Virus record (IMG/VR): IMGVR_UViG_3300029517_000086
Origin: a virus
Lineage: Duplodnaviria > Heunggongvirae > Uroviricota > Caudoviricetes
DNA: 12,086 nt
Direction: 5' to 3' (one strand)
The position numbers and the translations under genes are program-made. A model generated the notes under the pieces. The model was not told the origin of the DNA and ran no database searches. It saw only the letters and a program-made list of their open reading frames with translations. Positions 671-11,334 of the stretch are shown piece after piece. Each line of letters starts with the position of its first letter. Position 1 is the stretch's first letter.

Positions 671-1164
671 TAAGCCCCCACGTAATTCCCTGACAGATAC
701 CACTCTTCACCCGATGCAGCGCGCTTGCTGCTTTTCCGTAAGCACCGCTCACGACGCGCCAGAAAATTGTTTCGTTCTGGCTGGGAGTGGCTTTCACGGA
801 ATGCCGCCATCCACACGGTTGCAGCACGACGGTATAAGCCCCTGGACTCCAGTTCTTCCGCCTGGCGGGTCAGGCACAAAATCACCCGGGGATCGTTAGT
901 GCCGACATAGAAATTACGCACAGGTCTGGTTTCACGAACTGGTTGTGGTTTCGGCTCCTGCGCTCTCTCAGTCAGGCGCGGGAAATGTCTGCGTGTATCT
1001 CCTTCACAACGGTGAGCCACACGTCCACTCTGACGTAACTTGCTTGCTGACTGCAGAACGCGCTGCCGTGAGTAACCAGCAAAAGCATCCGCAATGTCTC
1101 CGGAAGTACACCCCGGATGGGCTTCAATGAATTTCTGAACGTCATTCAAAAGACTCATGATCAC
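670..1164 (-). CDS. Hypothetical protein with PerC-like C-terminal region (putative transcriptional activator)
   Basis: C-terminal segment AEELESRGLYRRAATVWMAAF resembles the conserved PerC/Pch motif, recalled from memory and not searched. GTG start at 1164..1162 overlaps the replication-gene stop (GTGA); an alternative ATG lies at 1158..1156. Confidence 0.6.
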   Translation of the reverse strand: MIMSLLNDVQKFIEAHPGCTSGDIADAFAGYSRQRVLQSASKLRQSGRVAHRCEGDTRRHFPRLTERAQEPKPQPVRETRPVRNFYVGTNDPRVILCLTRQAEELESRGLYRRAATVWMAAFRESHSQPERNNFLARRERCLRKSSKRAASGEEWYLSGNYVGA

Positions 1165-2102
1165 CCCCTGAATCCTGCCGGGATCTGGCTGTAGTCCACA
1201 TTGTCGTAACTGGATTTGAAGTACGGGTCTTCGCGTTTTTCGGTGTACGTGCTTACGGACGGCGATAAGCGCAGGGAAAGCTCATCCCATTTTTCCCGCA
1301 GCTTCGACGGGCTGAGCACGTTACGGCACCAGAACGGATCGCGGCTGACGCGGCTGTACATCTCGCAGATTTGTTTGTGAGTACGACCATCCTGCACACA
1401 CATCAGGCGAATTTCGTTTGCCCAGGCTGTCCAGTTCGGTTCTTTGGGACGAACCACCTCGCCGTCACATTCGGCAGCCTGCTCGTACAGGGCGATGATT
1501 TTTTTCCAGAGCCACTGTGCGCAGGTCAAATCATCCTGCGTCCCCCACTGGCGCTTTTTAGGGCTGAATACAACCGCATCAGGATGGCGAGTTAAAAAAT
1601 CCTGTTCAGCCGTCTGCGTGTCCGGTTGCGAAGCGTCCGGACGAGAAGTTTTTTTATCTGACGGATCATGTTTTGATTTTACTGACGGATCCCCGCCAGA
1701 TTCTGACGGGTGAAAACCCGCTTTTTTGCCAGATTTCGACGCATCAAATTTTGACGGGTCAGATTTTGATGCGTCAGATTTTGACGGGTCAGAATCTGAC
1801 AGTTGAGAAAAAGCCGCAGCCTGAAGCTTCGCAACGTTAAGCTGATAAACATTCGACGCATTGCGGTTACCCTGGCGACGCGCCTTACGCGTTAACCAGC
1901 CTTCTGCTTCCAGCCGTGCGATAGCCGTTCTGACGGTACTCATCCCCGCGCCAATCTGGCGGGCAATGGTTTCAATTGATGGCCAGCACACACCTTCGTC
2001 ATTACTGAAATCAGCCAGGCGTGCCATAATTGCCACGCTGGATAATTTCATGCCTGACGCTGCGCAACCATCCCATACATAGCCGGTTAATTTAGTGCTC
2101 AT
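1161..2102 (-). CDS. Phage replication initiation protein: N-terminal winged HTH, low-complexity linker, DnaT-like C-terminal domain
   Basis: N-terminus (SIETIARQIGAGMSTVRTAIARLEAEGWL) is HTH-like. C-terminus ends ...DYSQIPAGFRG, which parallels the E. coli DnaT C-terminus ...SEPDSQIPPGFRG. The Ser/Asp/Lys-rich linker (SDSDPSKSDASKSDPSKFDASKSG) is encoded by a DNA iteron array. RBS AGG lies upstream of ATG at 2102..2100. Confidence 0.85.
   Translation of the reverse strand: MSTKLTGYVWDGCAASGMKLSSVAIMARLADFSNDEGVCWPSIETIARQIGAGMSTVRTAIARLEAEGWLTRKARRQGNRNASNVYQLNVAKLQAAAFSQLSDSDPSKSDASKSDPSKFDASKSGKKAGFHPSESGGDPSVKSKHDPSDKKTSRPDASQPDTQTAEQDFLTRHPDAVVFSPKKRQWGTQDDLTCAQWLWKKIIALYEQAAECDGEVVRPKEPNWTAWANEIRLMCVQDGRTHKQICEMYSRVSRDPFWCRNVLSPSKLREKWDELSLRLSPSVSTYTEKREDPYFKSSYDNVDYSQIPAGFRG
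1655..1805. repeat. Iteron-like direct repeat array inside the replication initiator gene (putative phage origin)
   Basis: Six roughly 15-bp units sharing a TGACGG-type core: 1698-1712 agattctgacgggtg, 1731-1745 agatttcgacgcatc, 1746-1760 aaattttgacgggtc, 1761-1775 agattttgatgcgtc, 1776-1790 agattttgacgggtc, 1791-1805 agaatctgacagttg. Further ctgacggatc copies at 1655-1667 and 1677-1692, with an adjacent T-rich stretch at 1645-1658. Confidence 0.6.
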
Positions 2103-2111
2103 GACCGACCT

Positions 2112-2450
2112 CTATTTCCCTGAATTTACGACGAAACTTTTCGAGCGGACTGAAGCATTCATGCTCATAGCCTTCGCGGAGGTAGATAACCCGTTGTGTT
2201 TCCGGCTCCCAACGAATGACTCTGACGGGTACTCCGTAGTGATCTTTGAACCAGCGGTTAACTTGTCGCAAAGGACTGTCTCCTTTTGCCGGTTAAAATC
2301 ACCCACAGCCCACTCTGCAAAGCTGTGGGTTACAATTACCCTGCCACCTGGTACATTTACTGCATAGCAATACTCCACCTTCGCTTTTCCACCCGGTACA
2401 GGAAGCGCAATCAGTTGCGAGCGACGGTAGTGTGTTGTTAAACTATTCAT
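2112..2450 (-). CDS. Hypothetical protein (112 aa), between the CII-like gene and the replication gene
   Basis: ATG at 2450..2448 overlaps the TGA of the upstream CII-like gene (ATGA coupling) and its stop lies 9 nt before the replication-gene ATG. Position and length are consistent with the e14 ymfM slot, as recalled. No recognisable motif. Confidence 0.55.
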
Positions 2451-2998
2451 GCGTTAGTTTCTCCACAGTCACGACACGCCACGGCGCCCGGAGCTGCACA
2501 CTCGCGGGCGTCATTACTTTCTGAAATGCAAAAAATTTTGTAGACCAGTGCTGCATGCTCCTGCAGCTTCGAAATTGAGAGGTACAGCTCGTCGTTAATT
2601 GCTGTCTTCTCATGCGGTTCCACTACACCGTCTTCAATTGCTGAACGAATCTGTTTTGAATAACTGCCGATCTGTTCAATGACCTCCAGCAGGCGTTGGT
2701 TGATATCGGCGTTGTCCACATCCTCGACATCAGGAAGAGACACAAAGACGCCATTTGCAGACTGCGCCACAGCGTCAGCAATGAAGTGAGTTCCACCAGC
2801 ACGTTGCAAAATCATTGCCCATCCCAGCGGGAAAATCTGATCGCCATCGGCACGAAGGCGGTTAAATAATGCGTTCTCTGTTACATCCAGCCAGTCAGCA
2901 GCTTCAGCGTAACCCCCCGGCAACGCTGCGATAGTTTTTCTGACAGCTTTCACGTACCACTCAGGCTGTTTTTCTACTTTCCAGTGATGCTTACCCAC
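2447..2998 (-). CDS. CII-like phage regulatory protein (YmfL/CP76-type, tentative), 183 aa
   Basis: Second gene of the rightward early operon, directly after the cro-like gene and overlapping its end by 8 nt. GTG start at 2998..2996 is preceded by AGGAGG. The family assignment comes from position and size only. Confidence 0.6.
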
Positions 2999-3251
2999 GG
3001 TTCACCTCCTGTTCCTGTGGTTTAAACCCATTCTGGTTTTGGCTAGATTGAAAACGTGCCGGATAAAGAATCTGCATTTCGCTGACTTCACCCTTAAAAA
3101 AATTGGCTAAACGTTCTGCAAGCTCGATAGATGGAATCTGCTCCAGCCTCTCAATACGACTCAACGTCGCTGGATTGACTTGAACACCCGCAGCAACATG
3201 CTGCAAAGTGAAACCATGCGCCTTACGCACATTTCGTAATAGTGATTGCAT
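2991..3251 (-). CDS. Cro-like HTH (XRE family) transcriptional regulator
   Basis: 86 aa with an HTH core (FTLQHVAAGVQVNPATLSRIE). Divergent from the CI-type repressor across an operator-rich region. GGAGG sits 4 nt upstream of ATG at 3251..3249. Confidence 0.8.
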   Translation of the reverse strand: MQSLLRNVRKAHGFTLQHVAAGVQVNPATLSRIERLEQIPSIELAERLANFFKGEVSEMQILYPARFQSSQNQNGFKPQEQEVNRG

Positions 3252-3348: not shown

Positions 3349-4041
3349 ATGAACATAGGAAACCGAGTCAGACAACTTCGCCAAGCGAAGAACATGAAAA
3401 TCGCCGATCTCGCTGAAGCAATAGGAGTAGATGCGGCGAACATCTCGCGCTTAGAAACGGGTAAGCAAAAACAATTTACCGAACAAACACTGAGTAATAT
3501 TGCCAAGAGCTTAGGTGTTGATATTGCTGATCTCTTTACCTCTGCCCACAAAAGTAATACTGTATATAAAAACAGTAATAATGAGGATGTTGCGCAGGTG
3601 AAGGATGTGTTCCGTATTGAAATGCTGGATATCAGTGCCAGTGCGGGAAATGGCCTTATCCAAGGCGGTGATGTCATTGATGTGATTCATGCCATCGAAT
3701 ACAGAACTGATAATGCTGTATCAATGTTCGGCGGACGACCAGCCAATCACATCAAAGTTATCAACGTTCGTGGGGACAGTATGTGTCCAACCATTGAGCC
3801 AGGAGATCTCATCTTCGTTGATGTCAGCATCAATCAGTTTGATGGTGATGGTATATATGTCTTTGGTTTTGATGACAAAATATACGTTAAAAGACTTCAA
3901 ATGATTCCTGACAAACTGCTGGTGATTTCTGATAACCAGATTTACCGTGAATGGGGAATTACTAGCGAAAACGAACACCGATTCATGGTCTTTGGAAAGG
4001 TCTTAATCAGTCAGTCGCAAACCCTTAAGAGACATAATTAA
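3349..4041 (+). CDS. CI-type prophage repressor: N-terminal XRE-family HTH plus C-terminal S24 (LexA-like) peptidase domain
   Basis: HTH region (IADLAEAIGVDAANISRLETGK). C-terminal domain with a GDSM serine motif (RGDSMCPTIEPGDLIFVD) and a downstream lysine (IYVKRL), typical of autocleaving repressors. Same strand as int, as for lambda cI. Confidence 0.9.
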   Translation: MNIGNRVRQLRQAKNMKIADLAEAIGVDAANISRLETGKQKQFTEQTLSNIAKSLGVDIADLFTSAHKSNTVYKNSNNEDVAQVKDVFRIEMLDISASAGNGLIQGGDVIDVIHAIEYRTDNAVSMFGGRPANHIKVINVRGDSMCPTIEPGDLIFVDVSINQFDGDGIYVFGFDDKIYVKRLQMIPDKLLVISDNQIYREWGITSENEHRFMVFGKVLISQSQTLKRHN

Positions 4042-4060: not shown

Positions 4061-4085
4061 GGCCACCGAAAGGTGGCTTTTTATT
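4061..4085 (+). terminator. Rho-independent terminator downstream of the repressor gene
   Basis: Stem gccacc (4062-4067), loop gaaa, stem ggtggc (4072-4077), then ttttt (4078-4082), 20 nt after the cI-like stop. Confidence 0.7.
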
Positions 4086-4750: not shown

Positions 4751-5004
4751 AACTATTTCCTTCTTGGCTATATGAAAACACCAAGATACCACCGAGCCTG
4801 AAGTGGTGAAAAGACAGGCACATAACAGCTAAGTATTTTCAACCAGAGAGAATCCTTAGCGTTGTGGTGAATGCGGCTCAGCGCACGCGGGTTAAGGTTG
4901 AGGCTGACAGTCGACCTTCTGTGGATACCCACCCGTCTGGTGTGCAACCTTCGCCAGGCACCGGGAGGCACCCGGCACCACAACTTTATGCTGTGTGTAG
5001 TCTT

Positions 5005-5051
5005 GACGGTACCAGTTTGTACCCTTGCTTCCGGCTGGTACCGTCCTTTTT
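5005..5051 (+). terminator. Strong rho-independent terminator at the end of a GC-rich non-coding stretch
   Basis: Perfect 11-bp inverted repeat gacggtaccag (5005-5015) / ctggtaccgtc (5035-5045) around a 19-nt loop, followed by c-ttttt (5046-5051). The minus-strand reading has no T-run. Confidence 0.65.
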
Positions 5052-5269
5052 ACAAAACAGAGAAGAGCATCACCGGACGACGGGCTCATAACCCAATCCA
5101 TCCAGGCGGCTGCCACCGCAGGTGTTCTTCACTGTTTTGTGGAGAAACTAACCGCCCCTACGGGGGCATTCATGGAAATGTAATTGACTCGACTCAATAA
5201 TCGCCGGACGGTGAGGGCTTCCTTTTACCCGAATTCAGCGCGGTGCAGCGCATATACGTGGAGAACAAA

Positions 5270-5806
5270 ATGTCATTTATTAAAACTTTTTCTGGGAAGC
5301 ATTTTTATTATGACAGGATAAATAAAGACGACATCGTTATTAACGATATCGCGGTTTCCCTTTCAAATATCTGCCGCTTTGCCGGTCATCTTTCGCACTT
5401 CTACAGCGTCGCCCAACATGCGGTTCTTTGCAGCCAGCTGGTGCCGCAGGAATTTGCTTTTGAAGCGTTAATGCATGATGCAACAGAAGCGTATTGCCAG
5501 GACATTCCCGCACCACTGAAACGCCTTCTTCCTGACTATAAACGGATGGAAGAAAAAATAGACGCCGTAATCCGTGAGAAATACGGGTTACCCCCAGTTA
5601 TGAGTACACCCGTGAAATATGCCGATCTCATCATGCTGGCAACCGAACGCCGCGATCTCGGGCTTGATGATGGCTCTTTCTGGCTTGTACTGGAAGGTAT
5701 CCCGGCAACAGAGATGTTCAACGTGATTCCACTGGCACCGGGCCATGCCTACGGGATGTTTATGGAACGTTTTAAAGAGCTGCATAAGATGCATAAGCAA
5801 TCCTAA
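5270..5806 (+). CDS. HD-domain phosphohydrolase (YfdR-like 5'-deoxynucleotidase family)
   Basis: HD-domain signature residues: H in SVAQHAV and HD in LMHDATEAY. Start chosen at ATG 5270 (MSFIKTF...) with GGAG (5259-5262) upstream, rather than the ORF-track GTG at 5243. Confidence 0.8.
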   Translation: MSFIKTFSGKHFYYDRINKDDIVINDIAVSLSNICRFAGHLSHFYSVAQHAVLCSQLVPQEFAFEALMHDATEAYCQDIPAPLKRLLPDYKRMEEKIDAVIREKYGLPPVMSTPVKYADLIMLATERRDLGLDDGSFWLVLEGIPATEMFNVIPLAPGHAYGMFMERFKELHKMHKQS

Positions 5807-5860: not shown

Positions 5861-6106
5861 ATGCTTCAAATGCTGACACTTGAGGAATGGGCTGCGGAAA
5901 AATTTAGGAGTAACCCTCCAAGTGTGTCCACATTGCGTCGTTATGCTAAGCAGAATTTATTTTGTCCACCGGCAATGAAACAAGGTCGACTATGGCGAGT
6001 ACGTGAGGACGCAGAGTTAGTTGGGGAATTAGTTACTCCTGTCATTAAGAAAAGTGATTCTATTATTCTACAAAGGATTTTAAGTAATGGCAGCCAGACC
6101 ACGTAA
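5861..6106 (+). CDS. xis: Excisionase (lambda Xis family)
   Basis: MLQMLTLEEWAAEKF...STLRRYAKQNLFCPPAMKQGRLW parallels lambda Xis MYLTLQEWNARQRRPRSLETVRRWVRECRIFPPPVKDGREY. Sits immediately upstream of int and overlaps it by 20 nt. Confidence 0.85.
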   Translation: MLQMLTLEEWAAEKFRSNPPSVSTLRRYAKQNLFCPPAMKQGRLWRVREDAELVGELVTPVIKKSDSIILQRILSNGSQTT

Positions 6107-7214
6107 GAATAATGTTTCAGTCCCGAACTTGTATCCGCTCTATAGCAGAAAAGTAAATAAAGTTTATTGGCGATATAAGCATCCAGTGACCGGGAAGTTT
6201 CATTCTTTGGGCACAAACGAAGCTGAAGCCATTGCTATTGCCACTGAGGCCAATACACGCCTAGCTGAGCAAAGAACCCGGCAGATTCTAGCTATCAGTG
6301 ACAGGATCGCAACCAGCAAAGGAAAAGCAATCACAACGTCAACCTGGTTAGATCGCTATCAAGCAATCCAGGAAGACAGACTGAAAAGTGGCGATATAAA
6401 GCTCAACACCTATAAACAGAAAGCCAAACCAGTATCCTTGCTCAGGGAACGAGCAGGACTGAAGTTGATATCAGCCGTTGATGTCAGAGATATAGCACAA
6501 TTACTTGATGAGTATATCTCTGCTGGACAGCCTAGAATGGCCCAGGTCGTAAGGTCTGTATTGATCGATGTGTTTAAGGAAGCACAGCATTACGGCGAAG
6601 TTCCACCAGGGTATAACCCTGCTCTTGCAACGAAGCAACCCAGAAGGAAAATTAGCCGTCAACGCCTCAGCCTAGAAGAATGGAAAAAAATATTCGATAT
6701 CGCAGACGCCGCTCATCGTTATATGGGAAATGCCATGCTCCTAGCTTTGGTCACTGGGCAGCGTTTAGGAGATATATCCAAAATGAAATTTAGTGATATT
6801 TGGGAGGATCATCTTCACGTCATTCAGGAAAAGACCGGGAGCAAAATCGCTATCCCTCTTTCTTTACGTTTGAATGCTATCAACTGGTGTTTACGTGATG
6901 TAGTAGCTCGCTGCCGTGACTACGCAGTCAGCCCATACTTAGTGCATTTTTTCCGTACTACATCACAGGCTGAACGTGGCGCACAGGTAAAAGCTAATAC
7001 ACTAACGATGAACTTTAGCAAGGCACGTGATCTGGCAGAAATTGATTGGGGTACTGGAACTCCTGCAACTTTTCATGAACAAAGATCTTTATCTGAACGT
7101 CTTTACAAGGAACAAGGGGTTGATACCAGAAAGTTACTGGGCCATAAAACCCAGCAGCAAACCGATCGTTACCATGATGACCGAGGCAAAGGATGGAGCA
7201 AAGTAGCGTTGTGA
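6087..7214 (+). CDS. int: Tyrosine site-specific integrase (lambda Int family)
   Basis: 375 aa. N-terminal arm-binding region (PNLYPLY...YWRYKHPVTGKFHSLG) parallels lambda Int (PNLYIRNNGYYCYRDPRTGKEFGLG). Catalytic-domain blocks LVTGQRLGDISKMKFSDI, HEQRSLSERLY and LLGHKTQQQTDRYHDDRG match the lambda Int R...HxxR...Y signature. Confidence 0.95.
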   Translation: MAARPRKNNVSVPNLYPLYSRKVNKVYWRYKHPVTGKFHSLGTNEAEAIAIATEANTRLAEQRTRQILAISDRIATSKGKAITTSTWLDRYQAIQEDRLKSGDIKLNTYKQKAKPVSLLRERAGLKLISAVDVRDIAQLLDEYISAGQPRMAQVVRSVLIDVFKEAQHYGEVPPGYNPALATKQPRRKISRQRLSLEEWKKIFDIADAAHRYMGNAMLLALVTGQRLGDISKMKFSDIWEDHLHVIQEKTGSKIAIPLSLRLNAINWCLRDVVARCRDYAVSPYLVHFFRTTSQAERGAQVKANTLTMNFSKARDLAEIDWGTGTPATFHEQRSLSERLYKEQGVDTRKLLGHKTQQQTDRYHDDRGKGWSKVAL

Positions 7215-7302: not shown

Positions 7303-7785
7303 TTGATAAAAAATATGATAATCAATCAACTCAAAATCACGTATAACGACGATATTTTATCTGCACTTTCAGGAAAAGTGTTTCATGTTACTACTGCAGC
7401 TAATATGCTCCTTATAAAACAATCTGGAGCTTTGGTTCCAAATTCGGAATTATTGCAATTTTCAAGATTTGGAAATACATCTAATGGTTTTTTTAGGCAG
7501 CGCAATTGCGTGTCTTTTTTCGACTATAGATGCTATGGGACTAGATTCTGGAAAGAGCATGCTTATAAATGTTTTCCAACTCAGATCCTTAAACGCGAAC
7601 AAGGTGATAAGATTTCAATACTGTTTCTTCACGAAAGCAAGTTCGAGAAACTGATTCCATGGACTTCTTGGAAAGAAGAAAAAGCATGGGGCGAGAGGGT
7701 TGTCCCGTATGTTGAGACTGGATATAAAGGCATTGTTTCCCTAAGCGATATTACCGAAGAATTAGTTGTTGAGTTTGACTGCTAG
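7303..7785 (+). CDS. Hypothetical protein (156-160 aa), AT-rich cargo gene between int and the host junction
   Basis: Open frame of protein-like composition, no recognisable motif. Start is uncertain (TTG at 7303 or ATG at 7315), both with weak RBS. AT-rich by eye compared with the phage core. Confidence 0.5.
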   Translation: MIKNMIINQLKITYNDDILSALSGKVFHVTTAANMLLIKQSGALVPNSELLQFSRFGNTSNGFFRQRNCVSFFDYRCYGTRFWKEHAYKCFPTQILKREQGDKISILFLHESKFEKLIPWTSWKEEKAWGERVVPYVETGYKGIVSLSDITEELVVEFDC

Positions 7786-8211: not shown

Positions 8212-11200
8212 TCAGAGGTGTTCGAACCTAGCCACCACAGCACCTTCAATTTCTAGCACTTGATTCCAGGTCGTGGTCACCGAGCCAGTCAGAGGATCTT
8301 GACTGTCTGTCTGCCATGAGGAGTTGAAAAGCAGGCCGTCAGGATCGCTCTGCAGGTGAAGGTTGCCGAAGATACTGTTCCGGACGAGCAGGGAATAACA
8401 TCTCTCAGAAGCAAACTCCTGATAGATTCCACAGCCGTTGATTCTGATTGGCATCAGGCCTCCCGGACGCGACGACCTGTCCAGCGTGATCCCCAGTTCC
8501 GCATGCCTGTCCGCGTGGTAAATCAGTTCACGCAGGTCACTCCCTAGACGGGTGCCGAAAAATATAAGCGTAGAGTCGTCATTATCGACGGTCATCTCCC
8601 GTAAATGCTTCAGCAGTCCCTTCACGTCGCGAACGATTTCGGTCCGGAGAGGCTGCAACTGACTCAGGCCTCGGTAAACATCACGAAGCAGAGAATATTT
8701 GACGTCAGAAAGCGATGTCAGATCACCGTAGACATTGCTGTTGATCCCCCGAGCAATGATATTTTTAGGCATGGTTCCTCGAACCGACCTAGCTGTCCAT
8801 GGTATCTCCCCGTTCTCAGAGTTGCTGTAAGAAAAACGGGAAAGCAGTGCATCCTGAGCAAGCATTTCGGGCAGTTCGTGGGTCAGAGTCAGATCGGTTT
8901 TTTTCAGCCGTTCTGTATCAATCTCTGCGTTAAGAAGTTCATCATGCAGGCACTGGCTGAAAGCCAGAATATAGGCATCGAGAGTTTTATTGAAAGAAAT
9001 AATTTTCGCTTTAAAAACCATCTCAGACATTAAATATCCGTCTGGGGAACTGTCTTCACGACGTTTCATCCCATGAAGCTGATTTATAATTTGTTCCTTT
9101 CTGGAATACGTGAAGAGATTGTCATTCAGAGCATCCTGCACGCGTCGGCTGACAGGCTGCGGCCCAGCGGAAAGATAAAAAGCAATATCAGCGTAACTGC
9201 CGTACAGATTCCTTACATCTTCATAGGTTCCCATATAAATGCGACCGGTTATAGTTTCGGTTTCATTAAAGGCTGAAAAGGTTTTTATGAGGCCGGACAG
9301 CGCTTCGTACCAGCCGTTCTCATGACGATTGTTCCGGTATTCCAGCCTGATGATGCTGTCAATAATATCAGTGGCTGACTTAAATGAAGGTGTCATGCGA
9401 TCGTGTGCACCAGTAGGATAGACAAGCTCTGAATTCAGGAGTCGCTTAACAACGCTTTTAAGGGGGACATTCTTTTTCTGCCTGATATGAGAAAGAATAT
9501 AGCTTGCAGTCAACAAACGCACGTCAGCTAGGGCGTTATAAAATACCGTGTTCAGCGTCTTATTTTCTGAATATTCATTACCTCGCAGTACAGCCTGCCA
9601 GTCATGTCCTTCAGAAGTCTGCGTTAATAAGGCTGGTGTGATGAAAAAACTGTGCCAGCGGTACTGGTCAAAATGCTCTTCAAAGTTATTCCGGCCAAAC
9701 CAGAGCAACAGCATATCTGAGCTGTGTTCTGAGGCGAAACGGTCATCTTTCATGACTGCTGTTATGACTGTCTGAGCAGTGTAGAAAAGATGAGACAGCA
9801 GGCAAGCCGGGTCATTATCAGACCGTTCCCCGTTACGGTTATGAATACGTCGCCACATGTACCAGCTTTCCCATTCACCGATAAAATCTTTAACAAGCTC
9901 CCGGTGACGCAGCTCCTGGCCAACCGTCAGATTTTCTCCATACCCCGTTTTCCAGTCTATCAGCGCATGCCAGACGTGGAAAAGAGACTGAATATATTGC
10001 TGAAAATCGCCCAGCTGGCAGCTGTCGGCATCACGATACACCGAGAATGGGATGGTTAATACATTACGAAAATATTCCCCTGTGGTTTCCAAAGATTTTA
10101 CAGTAACGTGACTGAATGAGTAAAAGTCTCTATGGAATGACTGGCTGAATGTCACCATAAATCCTGTATCACTACATTCATCAATATAGTTACCGTCAGC
10201 ATACCGGAAACTTTTTTTCAACGTTGTGTAGGTGTCCACCAGCCTGTCTGTTGCACTGATGAAGGAACTAATATTTCTGTCTTCCAGAGCATCGTAGGCC
10301 TCGCCATAAAAATCACGGGTAATGTAGCGGTATTCTTTCCAGTTTTTTTTAAAACCTCTGATAAAGCATCGCCTGAACAAAAACGGCCACCAACAGGGAA
10401 AAATCACATCCGTAGATGCGAGCAGAGTTATTGTATCCTGCTTACGACCCAAGGATGGGAGTAAAATTATTTTTCCTACGCTGTTATTAACTGGTCGCAG
10501 AAATCGTAACAGAAAATTAAATAACCGCATCCGGACATCGGTAATATCTTTCCCCTCACCTAAATGATGAGGTAACAAATTCATATTCTCTTCACCTGAA
10601 ACATACCAGCGGAGGACCTCAATCCCATTGATGTAATTTTTATCGATATAATTCCCTGGGTGCTGAAGCCATGAGTTTATCCGCGAATGAAGAATGAAAT
10701 TTTCGACAATCTCTGACTGAAAATATTTTAACATAAGGCGGTCGCGTTTTTTATCGTCAAGAATATTCAGGCTTGAAATAAAAAACCATATAGATAGCAC
10801 GATGTTGAACAGCATCCAGATTAAGGCTGTAATGGCAAAAGCGGTCGTCCGGTATTTATCGCCGGCAGATGAAAATAGCCCACCAATCACTATAAATGCA
10901 GCCAGTGACAGCCCGCTGAGCCCGGCAAACATGTAACCCGAATGCAACTGATAGGCAGACTGAATATGTATGCGGGACGATTTTTTCTGAAAAAGCACGC
11001 TGATAAGGCCCACAACCAGCGGAAAAACGATCCCGATAATCGTCAGCTGAGCGCCCAGCAGGTTTGACATCCATGCCGGCAGCTCCGTAACACCTTTCAG
11101 ATAGGAAGCGGCAAAAGAATGAAATTCTGGACGAAAATATTCCGCAACAATGACTGCACCTACTGCCGTTGCCCAGAGCAACAACATGGCCTTCAGATAG

Positions 11201-11334
11201 TGCGTGGAGCAGTAAACCTGCGCTCTCTCAAGCAGACTCCAGCGATGTTTTTTATACACCGAATTACCTTTAAGGTTCCGTTTGAGATCGGCTCTGACTT
11301 TAGCTGAAAGGCGTGTAAAGAATATGCCAGACAT
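8212..11334 (-). CDS. Large membrane-anchored protein of unknown function (1040 aa): four predicted N-terminal TM helices plus a roughly 850-aa soluble domain
   Basis: Single uninterrupted 3.1-kb ORF. ATG at 11334..11332 with AGGAG 4 nt upstream. Hydrophobic helices at about residues 48-66, 92-115, 134-155 and 164-188. No nucleotide-binding, nuclease or other motif recognised by eye. Sits in the int-to-att cargo slot. Confidence 0.85.
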   Translation of the reverse strand: MSGIFFTRLSAKVRADLKRNLKGNSVYKKHRWSLLERAQVYCSTHYLKAMLLLWATAVGAVIVAEYFRPEFHSFAASYLKGVTELPAWMSNLLGAQLTIIGIVFPLVVGLISVLFQKKSSRIHIQSAYQLHSGYMFAGLSGLSLAAFIVIGGLFSSAGDKYRTTAFAITALIWMLFNIVLSIWFFISSLNILDDKKRDRLMLKYFQSEIVENFILHSRINSWLQHPGNYIDKNYINGIEVLRWYVSGEENMNLLPHHLGEGKDITDVRMRLFNFLLRFLRPVNNSVGKIILLPSLGRKQDTITLLASTDVIFPCWWPFLFRRCFIRGFKKNWKEYRYITRDFYGEAYDALEDRNISSFISATDRLVDTYTTLKKSFRYADGNYIDECSDTGFMVTFSQSFHRDFYSFSHVTVKSLETTGEYFRNVLTIPFSVYRDADSCQLGDFQQYIQSLFHVWHALIDWKTGYGENLTVGQELRHRELVKDFIGEWESWYMWRRIHNRNGERSDNDPACLLSHLFYTAQTVITAVMKDDRFASEHSSDMLLLWFGRNNFEEHFDQYRWHSFFITPALLTQTSEGHDWQAVLRGNEYSENKTLNTVFYNALADVRLLTASYILSHIRQKKNVPLKSVVKRLLNSELVYPTGAHDRMTPSFKSATDIIDSIIRLEYRNNRHENGWYEALSGLIKTFSAFNETETITGRIYMGTYEDVRNLYGSYADIAFYLSAGPQPVSRRVQDALNDNLFTYSRKEQIINQLHGMKRREDSSPDGYLMSEMVFKAKIISFNKTLDAYILAFSQCLHDELLNAEIDTERLKKTDLTLTHELPEMLAQDALLSRFSYSNSENGEIPWTARSVRGTMPKNIIARGINSNVYGDLTSLSDVKYSLLRDVYRGLSQLQPLRTEIVRDVKGLLKHLREMTVDNDDSTLIFFGTRLGSDLRELIYHADRHAELGITLDRSSRPGGLMPIRINGCGIYQEFASERCYSLLVRNSIFGNLHLQSDPDGLLFNSSWQTDSQDPLTGSVTTTWNQVLEIEGAVVARFEHL

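Follow-up and report, generated by a model that had tools for sequence, protein, structure and literature searches.

Organization of the prophage left arm

The window, i.e., the whole stretch of 12,086 nucleotides analyzed here (virus record IMGVR_UViG_3300029517_000086), is matched at 100% by the chromosome of E. coli ESBL 15. It constitutes the left arm of a lambdoid prophage that is e14-like and has inserted at the 3' end of icd. Its features are the following:

1161-2102, minus strand: O-like replication initiator
Minus strand: genes for a PerC-like activator and a LexA-like repressor
2447-2998, minus strand: CII/YmfL-like gene
2991-3251, minus strand: Cro-like helix-turn-helix (HTH) gene
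3349-4041, plus strand: CI-type repressor at the head of the leftward region (Pfam HTH and S24 peptidase)
4061-4078: terminator-like hairpin after cI (terminator scan)
4831-5054, plus strand: probable prophage sRNA of the STnc100/PasD family (Rfam RF02076)
5154-5269, plus strand: leader of 116 bp co-inherited with yfdR; homology to CPS-53 begins at 5154, just past the expected end of yfdQ
5270-5806, plus strand: yfdR, HD-domain ORF of 178 aa (RefSeq CDS; ORF and ribosome-binding site)
5779-5806, plus strand: mosaic joint, within the last codons of yfdR
5861-6106, plus strand: xisE excisionase (Pfam Exc, E=1.5e-12; RefSeq xisE)
6087-7214, plus strand: intE, lambda-type tyrosine integrase (Pfam Arm-DNA-bind_1, E=1.7e-37, and Phage_integrase, E=2e-16; RefSeq intE)
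7303-7785, plus strand: 160-aa ORF directly after intE, GC about 35-41%
8212-11334, minus strand: ORF of 1040 aa in the cargo slot between int and icd; its N-terminal part has hydrophobic segments
From about 11793: icd

Read along the plus strand, the order is cI, terminator, small ORFs and the sRNA, yfdR, xisE, intE, two unannotated cargo genes and icd. The original prediction had placed an HD-domain nucleotidase beside xis/int in the early region, and this placement holds: xisE starts 54 nt downstream of yfdR and overlaps intE by 20 nt, and the terminator scan gave no terminator-like site in the gap between yfdR and xisE. The hairpin distal to cI (4061-4078) is marked as a terminator in the annotation of phage SfII too. 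The location of yfdR downstream of this terminator and inside the xis-int operon suggests a gene that is expressed upon induction, not in the lysogen. Against an early expression stands the terminator of the sRNA, situated between the presumed pL and yfdR. The search for operator repeats, comparing the cI-cro region with the region after cI, gave nothing convincing, and sigma-70-like sites were not enriched over shuffled sequences (5 found versus 7.9 expected). The site at 5173-5201 gives no evidence of a private yfdR promoter: the sigma-70-like match is weak (9/12) and belongs to a class of sites that does not exceed the shuffles.

The probable sRNA and the cargo genes

Two neighbors of yfdR deserve a separate description, as both the sRNA and the 1040-aa cargo gene are more novel than yfdR itself. 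The probable sRNA matches the RF02076 model over its full length with 44.7 bits (E about 2e-8), slightly below the gathering score of 47, and ends with an 11-bp hairpin followed by CTTTTT. It is encoded on the yfdR strand, some 215 nt ahead of this gene. It contains a weak DicF-like match (4992-5046), and the same stretch is 98% identical in phage SfII, where it is annotated as a hypothetical CDS; STnc100 is a relative of PasD tied to Stx-type prophages. RefSeq proposes at 4864-5183 a "frameshifted hypothetical protein", for which we found no PHROG or protein-family support and which the sRNA explains better.

The cargo between int and icd is rare (10 of 5426 E. coli genomes carry it), and neither its 1040-aa nor its 160-aa ORF has a match in Pfam, NCBIfam, PHROG or PADLOC. 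The 1040-aa family comprises 116 clusters, nearly all labeled "hypothetical protein", from Enterobacterales, Vibrio and Aeromonas, and its members adjoin McrBC in Salmonella (locus L011) and SIR2_2/PIN genes in Vibrio (L012, L013). The 160-aa ORF is co-inherited with it in E. coli and was not seen beside the distant homologues examined. We consider the 1040-aa gene a candidate for a novel single-gene defence or conversion cargo, and of the genes of the window it is the more promising one for finding something new.

Identity, mosaicism and selection of yfdR

The yfdR reading frame starts with the ATG at 5270, in front of which stands GGAG (5260-5263), and its product has 178 aa. RefSeq annotates in E. 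coli ESBL 15 a CDS at exactly 5270-5806 as "yfdR: 5'-deoxynucleotidase", and the protein is identical at 168 of 176 residues (95%) to YfdR of the K-12 prophage CPS-53; ahead of the C-terminal tail, the two proteins differ at no more than 2 residues. Identity and family model both place it in the YfdR orthologue group (K-12 b2361; PHROG 318). The description "YfdR-like" given by the original prediction is therefore correct and understates the case: judged by its sequence, the gene of the window is K-12 yfdR itself. It is also a very common gene: of the 5426 complete genomes of E. coli searched by megablast, 2969 (about 55%) carry it, mostly at 95-99% identity and always labeled yfdR or HD family hydrolase. 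Beyond E. coli, tblastn detected YfdR homologues in 330 phage records, and an exhaustive phmmer search gave 22,689 cluster representatives at E<=1e-3, of which 15,231 reached E<=1e-10.

What distinguishes the window is the surroundings of the gene. Comparison with K-12 by blastn gave homology to CPS-53 over 5154-5778 at 94.6%, i.e., over the leader and yfdR minus its last ~10 codons. The tail of the window protein reads KELHKMHKQS, versus NDLSELRKCA in K-12 and SfII, where yfdS would overlap. For most E. coli copies the alignment covers only nucleotides 1-510 of the query, and 109 of the 5426 genomes have the yfdR-xisE-intE joint. The joint at 5779-5806 is a case of lambdoid mosaicism, a recombination break within a coding sequence. 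K-12, SfII and the Stx2 phages have after yfdR a yfdS-like gene and a yfdT/ea22-like gene, followed by xis-int, while yfdQ precedes yfdR in K-12, ST64B and the Stx2 phage; searching the window by tblastn with YfdP, YfdQ, YfdS, YfdT and TorI gave no match. A second stretch of the window, 667-1869, which carries the PerC-like yfdN and O-like yfdO genes, is 97.7% identical to CPS-53, and the two prophages have in common two separate modules, though their integrases and attachment sites differ.

Comparing alleles shows how the gene is maintained. Within the first 165 codons, 17-20 synonymous and 2-5 non-synonymous changes separate the window allele from those of K-12, SfII and the Stx2a phage; among the alleles generally, the differences are 13-22 synonymous and 2-6 non-synonymous, and dN/dS is 0.03-0.10 for all six pairs. 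yfdR is maintained under strong purifying selection and is not decaying. This bears directly on the possibility that yfdR has lost its function and drifts along in a cryptic prophage undergoing decay, a view for which one can cite the cryptic state of CPS-53 in K-12, deletions that gave no phenotype and the truncated copies present in databases. It is largely refuted by the dN/dS values, and in addition the ORF is intact in about 2940 E. coli genomes and the gene is carried by the functional phages SfII, ST64B and Stx2; we hold it to be very improbable. The window carries at 5270-5806 an allele of yfdR that is intact and under selection, the gene itself being already known and very common in prophages. 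One allele is peculiar: in the copy of Shigella phage SfII (locus L003, 6161-6697), a functional phage, a tyrosine replaces the first metal-binding histidine (H50Y). This change could reflect a sequencing variant, or it may hint that SfII can do without catalysis.

Fold and active site of YfdR

The assignment as an HD-domain enzyme, also part of the original prediction, is borne out by several searches. The best PHROG family is phrog_318, annotated as "deoxyribonucleoside 5' monophosphate phosphatase" (E=1.7e-106, 357 bits). The nearest solved structure in sequence searches is 2GZ4 (Atu1052), for which the single sequence gives E=3.5e-13 and the family profile 2.4e-31, followed by Lin2634 (3MZO) and YfbR (2PAQ) at about 1e-5 to 1e-4. 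AlphaFold2, run with the homologue alignment, predicts a helical protein forming one 178-aa domain (pLDDT 97.7, pTM 0.92), and Foldseek recovers for this model the all-alpha HD fold through 2GZ4 (E=3e-10, TM 0.79), with TM of 0.8-0.9 to many phage HD proteins and weaker matches to OxsA, YfbR and HDDC2.

The metal-ligand motif of the HD superfamily, H...HD...D, is present and hardly varies: H50, H69, D70 and D119 are kept in 251, 249, 246 and 243 of 252 homologues, respectively (97-100%). The alignment of 80 diverse full-length homologues showed R36, F37, G39, H50, H69, D70, E73, D78, K84, E94, D119 and E126 to be invariant or nearly so. Some family members have 350-410 aa (P0122, P0127, P0128, P0138 and others) and contain two YfdR-like stretches, i.e., tandem HD domains, and in several of them one copy seems to have lost motif residues (e.g., "HSKG" in P0127).

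To read these residues we relied on YfbR, for which a review of the superfamily reports that H33, H68, D69 and D137 hold a single Co2+ and that R18, W19 and D77 give the enzyme its deoxyribose specificity. Profile alignment sets H69-D70-E73-D78-K84 of YfdR opposite H68-D69-E72-D77-K of YfbR, and the chain of the E72A mutant (2PAR), which sets E72 opposite E73, confirms this register. E73 is securely aligned with the catalytic E72 and D78 with D77, which contacts the deoxyribose. The probable correspondence of R36, F37 and H50 with R18, W19 and H33 is deduced from motif order, as the N-terminal register of hhalign is unreliable. YfdR is nevertheless not a YfbR orthologue: the score for the Pfam YfbR-like family PF12917 is below gathering (24.3 versus 25.9 bits), and that for the NCBIfam YfbR equivalog NF003009 is far under its cut-off (19.9 versus 122 bits). 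The match to Pfam HD_3 is also below its gathering score. Since the YfbR family cut-offs are missed, the label "5'-deoxynucleotidase" rests on the K-12 experiments and not on family membership. T5 Dmp, suspected to be the source of the annotation of phrog_318, belongs to phrog_415, and its homology to YfdR was discarded (hhalign probability 0.07%). Taken at the level of sequence and predicted fold, YfdR appears to be a small stand-alone HD phosphomonoesterase from a very large phage-associated family (PHROG 318), with Atu1052/2GZ4 as its solved relative.

Genomic contexts of the homologues

The family reaches phages of Bacillus, Caulobacter and Vibrio, and its contexts are of two kinds. The temperate phages SfII, ST64B and Stx2a_WGPS2 carry yfdR in the same slot as the window, between cI and xis-int. 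The virulent phage phiKT has its homologue between the genes for a DNA helicase and DNA polymerase I; in Bacillus phage Thrax2 the homologue lies between thymidylate synthase/DHFR and thymidine kinase/Pol III, and in VpKK5 it belongs to the recombination module, between the SSB/annealing module and a Cas4-type exonuclease. The match in Vibrio phage VP16C falls under a CDS labeled helicase. That virulent phages keep their homologues in modules for replication or nucleotide metabolism favors a conserved enzymatic role in phage DNA metabolism, and the same distribution speaks against a defence role protecting the lysogen.

Biological role of YfdR

yfdR is a named gene with published biochemistry, cited here second-hand, and with a described DnaA interaction, so that the finding at this locus is real but ordinary. 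Noguchi and Katayama (PMC4776307) showed that multicopy yfdQ and yfdR, together with yfdS or yfdT, suppress over-initiation mutants and inhibit initiation at oriC, and that purified K-12 YfdR binds domain I of DnaA directly via Phe46, the F46A mutation weakening the binding. Deletion of yfdQRST gave no replication phenotype, and the authors cannot exclude artefacts of overexpression. The same article, citing Zimmerman 2008, describes K-12 YfdR as structurally homologous to YfbR but far weaker in its affinity for nucleotides, and its function as one that "remains elusive"; the phosphohydrolase activity on nucleotides reported for K-12 YfdR is thus of low affinity, and on the affinities we follow this summary. 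A metabolic-engineering study lists yfdR among the genes reported with CMP phosphatase activity and found the CMP yield unchanged by its deletion. Our literature searches on Atu1052/2GZ4 and on phage HD-domain deoxynucleotidases found no papers.

On this basis YfdR is probably a metal-dependent nucleoside-monophosphate phosphatase of the early lytic cycle, for which DnaA binding would be secondary; gene order, motif and fold point in this direction. Once the repressor is inactivated, yfdR would be transcribed together with xis and int, as gene order suggests. YfdR would then remove the phosphate from deoxynucleoside monophosphates, unless its true preferred substrate is a related but non-canonical nucleoside monophosphate, and the nucleotide pool would be reshaped early in lytic growth. 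The binding of DnaA would be a secondary, lineage-specific property which may dampen initiation at the host oriC where the partner genes exist. Besides the sRNA terminator mentioned above, further points count against the monophosphatase: the low affinity for canonical dNMPs in the cited summary, and the absence of effect of the yfdR and yfdQRST deletions in published work. The H50Y of SfII is another, as it may mean that one functional phage at least does not need the catalytic activity.

In an alternative reading, YfdR acts mainly as a non-enzymatic protein that binds domain I of DnaA at Phe46, competes with DiaA and DnaB and halts initiation at the host oriC during induction, the HD site being vestigial or regulatory. 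The direct binding and its loss of strength in F46A argue for it, as does the inhibition of initiation by multicopy yfdQRS or yfdQRT; the window allele, nearly unchanged from K-12 before the tail, would keep this ability, H50Y is compatible with a non-catalytic role, and the adjoining DicF/STnc100-like sRNA recalls the dicBF operon of cell-cycle inhibitors. However, the effect in vivo requires yfdQ plus yfdS or yfdT, none of which is in the window, so that the in vivo consequence of DnaA binding cannot be assumed here, and the caveats of the authors on overexpression and on the silent deletion apply as well. Furthermore, catalytic residues that are near-invariant across a family extending to Bacillus, Caulobacter and Vibrio phages are unexpected for a mere scaffold, and the conservation of a DnaA contact over so wide a family seems unlikely. 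We regard a mainly DnaA-directed role as a serious alternative which is nonetheless rather unlikely, and keep the early monophosphatase as the preferred reading.

The original prediction had left the role of the enzyme open between anti-phage defence and counter-defence. The candidacy for defence or counter-defence finds no support: no PADLOC model matches YfdR (E<=0.01) or its neighbors, the domain stands alone, homologues are common in virulent phages, and the operon is probably one expressed on induction. Defence by depletion of nucleotides, in which the prophage would shield its lysogen from superinfection, starts from the fact that HD-domain dNTPases are real defence effectors and that the left arm of the prophage holds other cargo. 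YfdR does not group with the anti-phage dNTPases (dGTPase, CloA, SAMHD1-like): these enzymes combine the HD domain with a C-terminal helical bundle, as in CloA, and form large oligomers (octamers or hexamers for defence dNTPases such as CloA), whereas YfdR has 178 aa and is devoid of the large oligomerization regions. Its gene lies inside the early operon and not in the int-att cargo slot, its homologues are widespread in virulent phages, and its reported activity is on monophosphates, not triphosphates. Among all the roles considered, this one appears to us extremely improbable.

Counter-defence by degradation of a signal was the second proposal. The extended motif H...HD...H...HH...D of the polynuclear HD phosphodiesterases is absent, the only conserved histidines of YfdR being H40, H50 and H69, none of them located after the HD dyad, and the degradation of cyclic nucleotides by an enzyme of that class is not borne out, a test that bears on polynuclear enzymes and leaves mononuclear phosphodiesterases outside its reach. 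A related version makes YfdR a non-homologous analogue of T5 Dmp which destroys dNMPs or a nucleotide-derived signal read by host immunity. According to preprints, m6-dAMP released during phage attack activates PUA-Cal-HAD, and phage Dmp alters dNTP pools, mutations in Dmp letting T5-like phages escape the dTTP-sensing Clover system; the weak affinity reported for canonical dNMPs, as far as that source goes, also leaves room for a non-canonical substrate. Yet YfdR has no homology to T5 Dmp and lacks the additional histidines, lambdoid prophages are not known to degrade the host chromosome, and none of the 31 papers in which YfdR is named ties it to immunity. A role of YfdR in counter-defence is hence quite improbable.

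A broader speculation, which we also judge improbable, would generalize this idea to the family: instead of being dNMPases of the housekeeping type, the YfdR-family HD monophosphatases would be tools of phages in a nucleotide conflict with immunity, removing dNMP danger signals such as m6-dAMP or reshaping the pools read by Clover-like dNTPases, possibly with an added brake on oriC through DnaA in enterobacterial lambdoid phages. Their preferred substrate would be non-canonical, which, if true, would explain the poor affinity for standard dNMPs. Bacterial immune systems are now known to read dNMPs and dNTP pools, and this makes it easier to approach the question of what yfdR does for a phage.

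Comparison with known enzymes

The enzymes to which the early monophosphatase can be compared share with YfdR either the fold or the setting. DatZ-type dATP triphosphohydrolases (phrog_7076) and the defence dNTPases are, like YfdR, HD-domain nucleotide hydrolases engaged in phage-host nucleotide conflicts; the match to phrog_7076 is marginal (22.9 bits, E=1.2e-4, versus 357 bits to phrog_318), and the defence dNTPases (dGTPase/CloA/SAMHD1-like) are much larger and oligomeric. T5 Dmp is also a phage-encoded early enzyme and catalyzes on paper the same reaction (dNMP -> deoxynucleoside + Pi), with documented remodelling of the pools; T5, however, degrades the host DNA, which lambdoid phages are not known to do.

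YfbR of E. coli (2PAQ), a chromosomal Co2+-dependent 5'-deoxyribonucleotidase, has the same mononuclear H..HD..D site and an aligning hHDAxEaxxGDxPxPxK block. The resemblance is limited to 13 identical residues out of 40 in this single alignable block and to a TM of about 0.44; F37 of YfdR would stand in place of W19, and the nucleotide affinity of YfdR is much lower in the summary cited above. Atu1052 from Agrobacterium tumefaciens (2GZ4) is closer: it presents the motif R-x-x-G...H...HD..E....D...K and a near full-length profile match, with about 25% identity and insertions of ~20 residues that YfdR does not have. Closest of all is K-12 YfdR from CPS-53/KpLE1 (WP_000008183), with the same 178 aa, the same motif and the same 116-bp upstream leader. 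It differs by its context: yfdQ/S/T and torI/intS surround the K-12 gene, whereas yfdR of the window is joined to xisE-intE in a prophage that integrates at icd. The locus constitutes a natural yfdR without yfdQ/S/T and is as such convenient for separating the enzymatic role of YfdR from its DnaA-binding role.
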